Positions 58,849 through 64,000 of a stretch of 64,000 bases of DNA are shown here, in pieces (the first letter of the stretch is position 1; each line of letters opens with the position of its first letter). Origin of the DNA: a plasmid; assembly GCF_053078305.1 (NCBI RefSeq), contig NZ_CP166875.1, one strand, 5' to 3'. The translations under genes and the position numbers were made by a program. The notes under the pieces are model-generated. The model was not told where the DNA came from, did no database searches, and worked only from the letters and a program-made list of their open reading frames with translations.

Positions 58849-59467
58849 TGACGCACAGGACGGAAAAAATAATAGCTGCCGGACAGCAGCAACCAGCAGT
58901 CGTCCGGTAAAAAAGACAAACAAGGCGCATTGAGGTCAGCCTTCGCAACAATCCGGCGGCAGATTCTCTACCGCCGTGTTGCCCGTTAACGTTTAACTTC
59001 GTAGGCTAACGTTGCCACAAGCACCGTATTTCCCTGCTCGATACGAAATCCGCAAAGCGAATCCCTCACCATCCAGACAAAACACAGTATCGTCACACAG
59101 ACGACGATTAACATCATTAAAAACGTTCGTTGTGGCATCGCAGCCCCTCCATTGCCTTTCGGCCGTCATCGGGCTACTATAATGTTGTTGAGGCATTACA
59201 GTGGGCCCTGGGTTGATTGATAAAAAAATCGCCTGGGGCTTTCTGCTACATGCCGTCCACAAAACGCTTTCGGCATACAGCCTCAAGCGCCCGCCGCTAT
59301 TCTAATCGTTTTCCAGTCCGCCACAATCCTTTTCATGCCACCACGTATTTTGTGTCAGGGACAGAAATAAAGCCGGAAAGTGACTACGTGTGCACACATC
59401 TGTTTTCCGGGCTGCAGGCATCGTGTTATTTTCTGAAATGCAAAATAATAAAAAACAAGGACACATC

Positions 59468-61577: not shown

Positions 61578-62045
61578 ATGATAAAATATATCTTTTCACT
61601 CACCATTATTTTTTCCGCTTCTCTCTGTGCTGCACAGATTCAGGGGCACGTCATCCGCGTTCTTGATGGTGATACGCTGGAAATATTACAGGACAAAAAG
61701 CCTGTCAGGGTCCGTCTGGCTAATATTGATGCACCGGAAAAGAAACAGCCCTTTGGACGCTGGTCAGCCACTCAGCTGAAGGACCTGGTGGCCGGAAAGC
61801 CCGTAACCGTGCAATACGCGCAGACAGACAGGTATGGCCGTATTCTCGGCCGGGTCTATACCGCTGACGGCACAGAAGCAAATCGCTGGCAGGTCCGTAA
61901 CGGCGCTGCCTGGGTGTACCCGGACTACAATAATGACTATACTCTCCCGCCGCTCCAGCGTGATGCCCGCGCCCTGAAGCGGGGATTATGGGCAGATAAA
62001 AATCCGGTACCACCATGGACCTGGAGAAAACAGAATAAGAAATAA
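61578..62045 (+). CDS. nuc: secreted staphylococcal-nuclease-like (SNase) endonuclease
   Basis: 155 aa; signal peptide, then SNase pattern ...VIRVLDGDTLEI...VRVRLANIDAPE...YGRILGRVY... Confidence 0.75.
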   Translation: MIKYIFSLTIIFSASLCAAQIQGHVIRVLDGDTLEILQDKKPVRVRLANIDAPEKKQPFGRWSATQLKDLVAGKPVTVQYAQTDRYGRILGRVYTADGTEANRWQVRNGAAWVYPDYNNDYTLPPLQRDARALKRGLWADKNPVPPWTWRKQNKK

Positions 62046-62195
62046 TTATTTGCTGATATGAAGAAAAAAACCATTTCAAAGAAAATAAATGGCAAAAATA
62101 CAGCATGGAAAAAAATTGCCATTTTTACCGCCGCGTTATTTTTAATATTTGCTGTCTGCTGGTCGTAATAAGCAGAATAACAGAAAGGTGTAAAA

Positions 62196-62372
62196 ATGAA
62201 CCTGGTTGATGCATTTGTCACTAAAGTGATATCCGGACCGTATGAAGAATACGGAAAATGGTGGGTGGATGTAGAATATATTTCCTGGGGAGTTCCGGGT
62301 AAAAGCCGGCTCATGTTTGACTCACGGGAACAGGCACAGGAAGTGCAGGAAGGTTTTCGATTTTTAACCTGA
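62196..62372 (+). CDS. small hydrophilic protein (58 aa), part of repeated module
   Basis: ATG 62196 with AAAGGTG Shine-Dalgarno; MNLVDAFVTKVISGPYEEYGKWWVDVEYISWGVPGKSRLMFDSREQAQEVQEGFRFLT; followed by hairpin GGGCAGAAGGCGGTGACCCTCTGCCC; a truncated paralog lies at 62958-63062. Confidence 0.3.
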   Translation: MNLVDAFVTKVISGPYEEYGKWWVDVEYISWGVPGKSRLMFDSREQAQEVQEGFRFLT

Positions 62373-62434
62373 GCATATTTTGTTAAAGGGCAGAAGGCGG
62401 TGACCCTCTGCCCTTAAGTACGTTTCCGGGATTA

Positions 62435-62530
62435 TCAGTCAACCAGTTCCCGGATCAGTTCCAGGAGAGCTATCACTGCGTTAGCCACAGCAACAACCGC
62501 CCTGAGAACGATGATTAACAGGTTAATCAT
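62435..62530 (-). CDS. 31-aa hydrophobic peptide, type I toxin-like (TisB/ZorO-like), copy 1
   Basis: Reverse-strand ATG (62528-62530) preceded by GGAG Shine-Dalgarno; MINLLIIVLRAVVAVANAVIALLELIRELVD; near-identical copy at 63119-63214. Confidence 0.45.
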   Translation of the reverse strand: MINLLIIVLRAVVAVANAVIALLELIRELVD

Positions 62531-62755
62531 CCGCTTCTCCATCAATGGAGAAAGAACACCGTGGTTTGCCCTTACATTGCCTGTCGCCACGTTTTCTATA
62601 GTGTCAGTTATAGACAGTTCTTCTCCGGCCAGAGCACCAAAACCAGCACCACCTGATGTTTTGGCCAGGACTTGCAACCTGTTCATCCCGGTGAACGATA
62701 TGCCGGAAAGAACGTGCCTCAAAGCTGACACACCGAGTATATACTTATACTGTGC

Positions 62756-62784
62756 TTGCAGAAATATTATTTCAGCCGTATTAT
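62756..62784 (+). promoter_or_regulatory. sigma-70-like promoter for a short plus-strand transcript upstream (on the coding strand) of toxin copy 1
   Basis: TTGCAG -35 (62756-62761), 17-bp spacer, TATTAT -10 (62779-62784); about 90 nt downstream is an A-run / hairpin / T-run element (62844-62877). Confidence 0.35.
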
Positions 62785-62957
62785 TTCATAGTCAGTTATA
62801 GGCAGTTATCTTCCGGTCAGGGCTACCAACTTCGATCCGGAATCGCAAAAAAACCGGCCTCACCAGTCGGTTTTTTTGCGTCTGTACCTCCTCCCCGGAC
62901 AGCAGTTCTCTCACTCCCGTTGAATATTTCCTGTTGAATTTTACGAAAATACGGCAA

Positions 62958-63062
62958 ATGGGAGATATCGAATATATTTCCTTGGGTGTAGTCGGTAAAA
63001 ACCAGCTCATGTTTGACTCACAGAAACAGGCTCTGGAAGTACAGAAAGTAATCTGTCCGTAG
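62958..63062 (+). CDS. truncated paralog of the 58-aa small protein (34 aa)
   Basis: MGDIEYISLGVVGKNQLMFDSQKQALEVQKVICP, similar to residues 25-55 of the 62196 ORF; weak RBS, possibly degenerate. Confidence 0.2.
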   Translation: MGDIEYISLGVVGKNQLMFDSQKQALEVQKVICP

Positions 63063-63118
63063 ATTATTAAAGGGCAGAGGGCGGTGACCCTCTGCCCTTA
63101 AGTACGTTTCCGGGATTA

Positions 63119-63214
63119 TCAGTCAACCAGTTCCCGGATCAGTTCCAGGAGAGCTATCACTGCGTTAGCCACAGCAACAACCGCCCTGAGAACGATGATT
63201 AACAGGTTAATCAT
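63119..63214 (-). CDS. 31-aa hydrophobic peptide, type I toxin-like, copy 2
   Basis: Same peptide as 62435-62530 (MINLLIIVLRAVVAVANAVIALLELIRELVD); flanking about 150 bp also duplicated. Confidence 0.45.
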   Translation of the reverse strand: MINLLIIVLRAVVAVANAVIALLELIRELVD

Positions 63215-63748
63215 CCGTTTCTCCATCAATGGAGGAAATCACTGTTGTTTACTCTTACATTGCCTGTCACAACAGCTCTTTCATTGTTAGCTGAAAAGAG
63301 ACTTCCTCCGGCCAGAGCACCAGACGCAGCACCACCTGTTTGTCCGGCCAGGTCTTTGAATAGCACAGATCCATAGTCCCGATGGATTGATGCGAAGGTA
63401 AGTCTCCAGACAAGGCTAACTTGCTGATTATACTTGTTTCAGGCGATATCGCTACTCCCGGAACAATAGACTGTAACGAACAGATTGCGATCAGGTGAAT
63501 ATAACGATATTCTGGTAACGTTAGTTGAAAAGAGACTTCCCCCGGGCCAGAGCCACCCACTCTCCCTGGGATCGCAAAAAAGCCGGCCTCACCAGTCGGC
63601 TTTTTTGTGCCTGTCTCTCACCACCTTCTGCTGTTCCTGTGAAAATGCCCTGCTGAATTCAGCCCTGCCCGGTCATTACCGGCGATTGTTCGCATTAATT
63701 CCACTCAGCCTCATCCCGAAATTTATCTATTTATCGATGGAGGAATCC

Positions 63749-64000
63749 TCGTGTCTTACCAACACTCCCCCACAACAGAAGACCCGATGAACATATGGTA
63801 TATCGTTGGCACCATATGTCTGCTCTTTGCGCTTCTCATCTGGCTCTTTTTACCCGACATCGTCTTTGCCACCTGCCTGATCCTGCACACAATGTGGGGG
63901 ATGACTGACTGGGGGCCTTTTCACCATTTTGCCGCCCCCCGTTACAACCTGCTGGCCATCACTGCTAACAACGCGGCAACCATCACTTTCGGCCAGTGGC
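63749..64000 (+). CDS. membrane protein, N-terminal part (continues beyond window end)
   Basis: Open frame from GTG 63749 (GGAGGA Shine-Dalgarno) or ATG 63787 to the window end; MNIWYIVGTICLLFALLIWLFLPDIVFATCLILHTMWGM... hydrophobic. Confidence 0.3.

Follow-up and report, generated by a model that had tools for sequence, protein, structure and literature searches.

In the dinQ/agrB system of K-12, the primary toxin transcript is inert and is activated by 5' processing, after which the small RNA (sRNA) AgrB re-closes the hairpin around the Shine-Dalgarno (SD) sequence and leads to RNase III cleavage (PMC5066626, PMC3567139); the neighbouring sRNA AgrA fails to repress dinQ (PMC5066626). Homologues of dinQ on enterobacterial chromosomes and plasmids, which have the elements of the dinQ 5' untranslated region (UTR) in common and occur in more than one copy in some strains, were defined in 2016 by Kristiansen et al. 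as the dql genes, dqlA and dqlB (PMC5066626). In 2025, DqlB of plasmid pOXA-48 was reported to be toxic and to be counteracted by its agrB via base pairing, such that a 4-nt mismatch abolishes the rescue and a compensatory change restores it; the module kills on plasmid loss, and agrB alone prevents killing on curing (PMC12365149). The agrB-dqlB module of the IncX3 plasmid pOXA-484 is likewise toxic and self-neutralising, and it stabilises a test plasmid (PMC12317039). The dqlB gene is present on 83.2% of IncB/O/K/Z and 67.4% of IncI1 plasmids (PMC12365149). Here we analyze a stretch of 64,000 nucleotides of plasmid DNA (contig NZ_CP166875.1, assembly GCF_053078305.1; hereafter, the window), in which a 31-codon open reading frame (ORF) occurs twice near the right end, and compare this locus with the described systems.

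Identity of the repeated gene and its antitoxin RNAs

The two ORFs lie on the minus strand, encode the same peptide (MINLLIIVLRAVVAVANAVIALLELIRELVD, 100% identical), and show 0 differences between their 96-nt coding sequences (CDSs). A GGAG sequence is located 6 nt upstream of each ATG (62537-62540 and 63221-63224, minus strand). Both ORFs had been noticed, with the same coordinates, GGAG sites and translation, in a first-pass annotation made from the letters of the sequence, which proposed that they encode a type I toxin likened to TisB or ZorO, or else belonging to a family that was not recognised. The peptide, which is hydrophobic (grand average of hydropathy 1.89) and consists of one hydrophobic helix with an acidic C-terminus, matches the NCBIfam model NF041473, "DinQ-like type I toxin DqlB", with 63.7 bits against a curated equivalog cutoff of 35, residues 1-31 being aligned to profile positions 1-31. 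The model for DinQ proper (NF041472) yields 22.2 bits against a cutoff of 30, with just residues 18-29 aligned, and no NCBIfam toxin model other than these two, those for TisB and ZorO included, matches the peptide at E ≤ 1. A megablast search with positions 62000-64000 returned plasmids of the IncI1 complex, typed as IncK2/Z, MOBP and MPF_I, that are 100% identical over the 2 kb, and in these plasmids RefSeq gives exactly these two ORFs the name dqlB and places them between the thermonuclease gene nuc and trbA.

The antitoxin RNAs were recognized on the plus strand. The Rfam model AgrB (RF02891) matches agr1 over its full length (1-84) with 47.7 bits against a gathering threshold of 40 (E 5.9e-6), and agr2, again at full length, just below that threshold with 38.5 bits (E 6.5e-4); GC-to-AU covariation is seen in the stem of the sRNA. 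Taken together, the peptide profile, the RefSeq annotation and the Rfam match represent three independent lines of evidence that identify the locus as DqlB/AgrB, and the region very probably comprises two adjacent DqlB/AgrB modules of the type I toxin-antitoxin (TA) class on a conjugative plasmid of the IncI1 complex (IncK2/Z type), situated between nuc and trbA (Table 1). The locus also displays the features expected of DqlB members, namely, a sigma-70 −10 column, a spaced SD and a Rho-independent terminator homologous to that of dinQ. The repeated gene is dqlB, which already has a name and belongs to a family experimentally validated as a plasmid addiction toxin; DqlB/AgrB here is a member of a known, named and published system, not a new toxin.

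The first-pass annotation was right in assigning the peptide to the type I toxins and in setting it apart from hok, pnd, srnB, ldr, ibs and tisB, and the search against type I toxin families that it proposed returns DqlB. The likeness to TisB or ZorO and the notion of an unrecognised family give way to the NF041473 assignment and the RefSeq name. Membership in the TisB, ZorO and Hok families was rejected for want of a profile match; the Rfam match to OrzO-P covers the terminator hairpin only (30.8 bits against 60). With respect to the antitoxin, a plus-strand transcript had been proposed at about 62791-62880, in agreement with the AgrB match of agr1. This accounts for the first sRNA gene of the tandem; the second one, along with its promoter (63485-63608), lies outside the interval that the annotation covered (62,196 to 63,214) and was missed.

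An alignment with the gor-arsR intergenic region of K-12 demonstrates base-level homology of both units to dinQ-agrA-agrB that extends over the whole architecture. The terminator hairpin, the CDS with its LELIR motif, the SD hairpin (CUCCAU..AUGGAG), elements 1-4, the agr target and the −10 box are common to the two loci, as are the promoter, stem-loop and terminator of the agr genes and the presence of two agr genes in tandem. The K-12 locus differs in being chromosomal, in that DinQ has 27 amino acids and a GTG start, and in combining one toxin with two sRNAs, of which AgrA is inactive, whereas the window contains two toxin-sRNA pairs. The DqlB proteins of pOXA-48 (IncL), with which the window peptide shares the NF041473 family and 25 of 31 residues, and of pOXA-484 (IncX3; 24 of 31 residues for the IncX3 allele L007) are encoded in modules that are likewise plasmid-borne and include a divergent AgrB-type sRNA with about 35 nt of complementarity to the toxin 5' UTR. 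In contrast to these, complete modules occur as a tandem of two in the window, and their toxins are identical but their sRNA and target sequences differ. The Rfam AgrB model gives no match in pOXA-48 (L010) at E ≤ 1, the sRNA having diverged.

A GTG-initiated, in-frame extension of dqlB to 98 codons is present in unit 1 (62435-62731, minus strand) and is not preserved in unit 2, where there is an upstream stop codon.

Table 1. Coordinates of the two DqlB/AgrB units and of the adjoining plus-strand ORFs in the window (SD, Shine-Dalgarno; UTR, untranslated region; TSS, transcription start site)
Feature	Position	Strand	Basis
dqlB copy 1 (31-aa DinQ-like type I toxin)	62435-62530	-	NF041473 match, RefSeq dqlB annotation
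dqlB copy 2	63119-63214	-	nucleotide-identical to copy 1
dqlB1 Rho-independent terminator, GC-rich hairpin, bidirectional, common to ORF58	62387-62415	-	inverted repeat; aligns with K-12 dinQ terminator hairpin
dqlB2 terminator hairpin	63070-63099	-	repeat search and K-12 alignment
dqlB1 5' UTR, 199 nt	62531-62729	-	predicted TSS 62729 by homology to dinQ +1
dqlB2 5' UTR, 206 nt, with SD hairpin	63215-63420	-	predicted TSS 63420 by homology to dinQ +1
dqlB1 predicted −10, TATACT	62736-62741	-	conserved column, inferred
dqlB2 predicted −10, TATAAT	63427-63432	-	conserved column, inferred
AgrB-1 target site, contains 'element 2', 73 nt upstream of ATG	62604-62639	-	predicted duplex
AgrB-2 target site, 72 nt upstream of ATG	63287-63322	-	predicted duplex
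agr1 promoter: −35 TTGCAG (62756-61), 17-nt spacer, −10 TATTAT (62779-84)	62756-62784	+	read from sequence
agr1, AgrB-type antitoxin sRNA, specificity 'type 1'	62792-62879	+	Rfam RF02891
agr2 promoter: −35 TTGCGA (63485-90), 17-nt spacer, −10 TATTCT (63508-13)	63485-63513	+	sequence and K-12 alignment
agr2, AgrB-type antitoxin sRNA, specificity 'type 2'	63521-63608	+	Rfam AgrB, 38.5 bits
ORF58, 58-aa conserved hypothetical gene, convergent neighbour of dqlB1, context not TA	62196-62372	+	WP_001054907.1
Truncated ORF58 remnant, carried with unit 2	62934-63062	+	homology over 62964-63048, 81%

Predicted transcripts, sRNA pairing and mRNA folding

Since a generic promoter and terminator scan gave no more matches than shuffled sequences and missed the agr promoters as well as those of dqlB, homology to K-12 was used instead. 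The agr1 promoter, which had been called from the sequence as TTGCAG-17-TATTAT followed by a hairpin and T-run, is indeed present; the RNA would begin 7 nt after the −10 box and end in the terminator hairpin and T-run at 62847-62879. The TTGC and TA..T columns of the agr promoters are common to those of K-12 agrA and agrB. For the toxin genes, an alignment of 13 dql and dinQ loci contains a preserved TATAAT/TATACT/TATGAT column located 6-7 nt upstream of a conserved GTYAGC start, which places the predicted transcription start sites (TSSs) as given in Table 1; with the same register, the SD of K-12 dinQ falls at nt 184, as published (PMC5066626). The SD of dqlB1 is enclosed in a hairpin (62537-62553). 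The protein WP_001346191.1, annotated as hypothetical at 63267-63413 on the minus strand, falls entirely inside the 5' UTR of dqlB2, and its annotation is probably spurious.

The first-pass annotation had considered the plus-strand transcript a potential cis-antisense antitoxin. However, the predicted toxin mRNA and the sRNA are divergent and do not overlap, the distance from the predicted toxin start to the agr start being 62 nt in unit 1 (TSS 62729 and sRNA start 62792) and about 100 nt in unit 2, and the cis-antisense arrangement was rejected on these grounds. The AgrB antitoxin is instead predicted to pair in trans through its 5' segment. The direct repeat 62603-62635/62791-62823 reflects this relationship in that the 5' ~33 nt of the sRNA repeat the antisense of the toxin UTR. 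Duplex energies were predicted for the 5' 40-42 nt of each sRNA against the UTR, as full-length RNAduplex calculations over-extended the interactions and were uninformative. The cognate duplexes reach -54.4 kcal/mol with 35 pairs for agr1:dqlB1 (shuffles, -20.5 +/- 4.1) and -59.6 kcal/mol with 38 pairs for agr2:dqlB2 (shuffles, -24.8 +/- 4.0), compared to -61.6 kcal/mol for agrB:dinQ of K-12. In a set of 11 sRNAs with their cognate targets, taken from K-12 and a range of plasmids, 96.3% of the cells pair over the 22 variable positions, and compensatory changes occur in 15 of these 22 intermolecular pairs; partners slid relative to each other are 43-50% paired, and none of 500 shuffles attains the observed value.

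The predicted folding of the toxin mRNAs resembles that of dinQ. For K-12 as well as for both units, full-length minimum free energy (MFE) folds contain the 5' lock stem and a closed hairpin around the SD, and the pairing of element 1 with element 2 is estimated at -22.4 (unit 1), -20.3 (unit 2) and -23.4 (K-12) kcal/mol. Element 3 aligns across the loci with register shifts of 1 nt, and the matrix of pairing between elements 2 and 3 is indicative only. The RNA-folding and covariance analysis that had been suggested for the duplicated blocks thus yields the AgrB matches along with a predicted lock stem and closed SD.

A model of how each unit could work can be assembled from the family membership of the peptide and sRNA, the homology of the locus, the complementarity with its covariation and the predicted lock and SD structures, all observed here, and from homology to dinQ/agrB and the validated plasmid dqlB/agrB systems. 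A stable dqlB mRNA with a 5' UTR of about 200 nt would be made from the minus strand, and the 5' lock, in which element 1 is paired to element 2, would keep the GGAG shut in its small hairpin, rendering the primary transcript translationally inert. Once freed by processing at the 5' end, element 2 would bind element 3, the anti-SD strand, whereupon the SD would open. The divergent AgrB-type sRNA of about 88 nt would then use its 5' ~35 nt to pair with the part of the UTR that holds element 2, re-closing the SD hairpin and creating a substrate for RNase III, so that no toxin is made as long as the plasmid is present. Upon plasmid loss, the labile sRNA would decay, and the 31-residue hydrophobic helix would be translated and inserted in the inner membrane, killing or arresting the cell, that is, causing post-segregational killing (PSK).

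Such a scheme has parallels in tisB-istR1 and zorO-orzO, which also encode small hydrophobic inner-membrane type I toxins with long, structured and processed 5' UTRs and a divergent, trans-pairing sRNA that binds the UTR far upstream of the SD, but have no sequence-family relation to DqlB/AgrB. The hok/sok (pnd) systems of R1 and IncI plasmids similarly mediate plasmid PSK through an inert full-length mRNA activated by processing; however, the Sok RNA is genuinely cis-antisense, and hok relies on translational coupling to mok and on 3' processing, whereas DqlB/AgrB employs a non-overlapping sRNA and 5' processing.

Specificity, history and role of the two units

The near-identical block shared by the two copies is 189 nt long (95% identity, 62365-62553 vs 63049-63237 in a repeat search), and it sits inside a tandem unit of about 690 nt that has diverged unevenly; the duplicated blocks of the first-pass annotation therefore exist but are longer than the ~150 bp it gave. 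Identity amounts to 72% upstream of the toxin ORF (62557-62673 vs 63240-63356; the dqlB2 5' UTR as a whole is ~72% identical to that of unit 1), 81% in the 3' part of the convergent plus-strand ORF (62268-62352 vs 62964-63048), and 87% in the hairpin and T-run segment (62839-62890 vs 63568-63619). In a matrix of sRNA × UTR energies for 14 sRNAs and 13 toxins, at least six specificity groups are apparent. An IncI1/B/O plasmid (L003; 'type 1') has a single-copy module that falls in the same group as unit 1, and the single-copy modules found in the IncI-gamma/K1 plasmids L004 and L006 ('type 2') fall in that of unit 2. The segment identities form a mosaic: terminator and CDS match within a plasmid lineage (unit 1 equals unit 2, and L003 resembles L004), whereas the cassette comprising UTR, promoter and sRNA follows the specificity type across lineages. 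This pattern implies that cassettes were exchanged, or that gene conversion acted on the coding part only, and on sequence grounds the two units do not appear to be a recent in-place duplicate. For the cross duplexes in the window, energies of -37.3 and -35.4 kcal/mol are predicted, and 6-7 of the 22 variable positions stay unpaired. Because these duplexes are weaker than the predicted duplex of K-12 agrA with dinQ (-46.1 kcal/mol), and AgrA is non-repressing, mutual orthogonality of the two units is likely. The two units would then be separate specificity pairs, each sRNA fitting its own UTR only, which would amount to two independent locks on the same toxin.

Comparison with other plasmids points to loss of toxin genes from such arrangements. 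A tandem of two dqlB and two agr genes, likewise of differing specificity types, is present in the IncX1 plasmid L012 (NZ_MW082014.1, 1557-2708), whose second toxin, with 27 amino acids and a mutated SD (AGAG), appears to be decaying. In pSH262-2 (L013, NZ_MG299128.1, 1700-2040), a sibling IncK2/Z plasmid, a clean 420-bp deletion corresponding to window positions 62962-63381, with an ATGG microhomology at the junction, has removed dqlB2 together with the ORF58 remnant and the larger part of the dqlB2 UTR, target included, and kept agr2; the resulting layout, one toxin with two AgrB RNAs, is that of K-12 dinQ-agrA-agrB. At ≥95% identity, PLSDB contains approximately 256 records with the unit-1 cassette against approximately 146 with the dqlB2 region, counts that are approximate because BLAST placements join repeated pieces, and about 100 plasmids appear to be of the pSH262-2 form or similar. 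The IncX4 plasmid L009 (NZ_CP038317.1) has one dqlB with one cognate agr and, in addition, an orphan AgrB-like gene (2602-2684) with its own promoter, located beside an unrelated gene; a remnant toxin next to this orphan was looked for and none was found. These cases suggest a recurrent path from module gain through toxin loss to an orphan sRNA.

Given the homology to the LexA-regulated dinQ, it could be supposed that the window genes encode SOS-inducible stress or persistence toxins, like the chromosomal gene, and are not addiction modules. A weak LexA-like site (heterology index 11.64) has been predicted 119 nt upstream of dqlB on the IncI1 plasmid pTF2 (PMC12211044), and equivalent CTG-N10-CAG elements are present in the window. 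They occur, within positions 62000-64000, only at 62653-62668 and 63336-63351, both inside the transcribed 5' UTRs at about +62 to +85, downstream of the predicted TSS, and none is found at the promoters. The promoter of dinQ carries a LexA box (TACTGTATGATTATCCAG); at the aligned position, neither unit has a CTG-N10-CAG, and the UTR elements are more likely to be RNA structural elements than LexA boxes. LexA control was rejected by this pattern search. As neither promoter carries the pattern, SOS control of the window dqlB genes is unlikely, which fits an addiction role; furthermore, no change in DqlB was seen in the pTF2 proteome (PMC12211044), and dqlB/agrB acts as a PSK module in two plasmid systems (PMC12365149, PMC12317039). 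Altogether, we consider an SOS-type function quite improbable. Even less credence, to the point of being negligible, attaches to the case that the first-pass annotation had named as its own refutation, a chance ORF in a repeat that forms a structured element in DNA or RNA, for example a single-strand promoter. The many hairpins of the region and its location on a conjugative plasmid speak for that case, but the equivalog-level hidden Markov model match opposes it, AgrB is the sole Rfam family that matches the region, and related peptides are experimentally toxic (PMC12365149, PMC12317039). Moreover, codon differences in dqlB across 10 homologues comprise 368 synonymous and 186 non-synonymous changes, among plasmids whose DNA is just 75-85% identical. 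The CDS is under purifying selection across the family, and the mostly synonymous change excludes a fortuitous ORF.

With regard to the tandem arrangement itself, we tentatively put forward, as a possibility well short of an even chance, that it is a 'double lock' made of two orthogonal DqlB/AgrB types that are found singly in competing I-complex plasmids, with the coding segment homogenised by recombination. A simple redundant duplication, in which each sRNA also acts on the other UTR by way of the conserved 3' half of its pairing region (CCGG.CAGAGC), leaving effectively one TA system at twofold dosage, is a doubtful but serious competitor: the CDSs are identical, all modules share the 3' ~14 nt of that region, and 15-16 of the 22 variable positions are paired in the cross duplexes of -35 to -37 kcal/mol. 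Redundancy is harder to reconcile with the stronger pairing of agrA to dinQ (-46.1 kcal/mol), which does not lead to repression (PMC5066626), and with the loss of pOXA-48 agrB function upon a 4-nt mismatch, compared to 6-7 non-pairs of 22 here; in addition, the match of the unit cassettes to single-copy type 1 (L003) and type 2 (L004, L006) plasmids indicates two pre-existing alleles. That one or both modules are decaying relics without present function is unlikely. The ~100 related PLSDB plasmids that have the unit-1 cassette and lack the dqlB2 region, the pSH262-2 deletion and the degraded second toxin of the IncX1 plasmid are in line with decay, whereas both window units still have an intact ORF, together with the SD hairpin, the lock elements, the target and their promoters and terminators, the CDS is under purifying selection, and the tandem form occurs at ≥95% identity in ~146 plasmids of several genera.

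Several observations weigh against the overall interpretation of two intact, regulated modules. The AgrB score of agr2 falls 1.5 bits below the Rfam gathering threshold; its close type-2 homologues score 55.3 (L004) and 51.7 (L006) bits with the same model, and agr2 has a promoter, a terminator and a cognate target. The promoters predicted for dqlB were overlooked by the generic promoter scanner, and their −35 boxes are poor. As the sRNA 5' end and the target are mutual copies, the covariation could in part reflect gene conversion. In silico truncation at the equivalent of +44 opens the SD in unit 2 only, in neither unit 1 nor K-12; given that the SD stays shut for K-12, where opening is shown experimentally, MFE truncation is not a decisive test of activation. 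The existence of sibling plasmids lacking dqlB2 indicates that the second toxin is dispensable. Finally, the transcript ends, processing, toxicity and PSK ascribed to the alleles of this plasmid are drawn from homology.

If the double-lock interpretation is correct, the plasmid would kill on loss and, at the same time, have immunity against addiction by a rival of either type alone, derivatives such as pSH262-2 that have deleted dqlB2 and kept agr2 would retain an orphan anti-addiction sRNA, and the path of gain followed by toxin loss would explain both agrA of K-12 and the orphan AgrB in IncX4 plasmids. As a discovery the locus has little weight, inasmuch as publications already cover the family, the antitoxin RNA, the mechanism and the addiction role, and RefSeq gives the ORFs the name dqlB. 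Modestly new is the combination of two units that differ in sRNA/target specificity and have identical toxin CDSs. The presence of at least six specificity types among 12 modules, tandem pairs that are always of differing types, CDSs homogenised beside distinct regulatory cassettes, and recurrent toxin loss with orphan AgrB RNAs left behind could be of interest for plasmid competition and for the evolution of RNA antitoxin specificity. The case is also a useful check, in that a reading of the sequence by itself was enough to identify correctly a TA module of type I with its sRNA.

Neighbouring genes

Each dqlB copy had been described as convergent with a small plus-strand ORF. For copy 1, this ORF (ORF58) looks like a real conserved gene under purifying selection, with 20 synonymous versus 8-10 non-synonymous codon differences relative to its homologues; for copy 2, it is a truncated remnant. 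ORF58 has no NCBIfam match and is consistently convergent with dqlB in IncI-complex plasmids, including those with a single copy (L003 and L004), the terminator hairpin being in common. An unannotated ORF of 36 codons (MKKKTISKKINGKNTAWKKIAIFTAALFLIFAVCWS, 62058-62168, plus strand) begins 13 nt after the nuclease gene; its product, basic at the N-terminus and hydrophobic in the tail, has no NCBIfam match. At 59136-59292 on the minus strand, a match to the Rfam family sok (124.7 bits against a threshold of 59) lies beside a Hok/Gef-family gene annotated in RefSeq, and this pnd/hok-type locus is a second, unrelated type I TA system, 3 kb from the dqlB modules.

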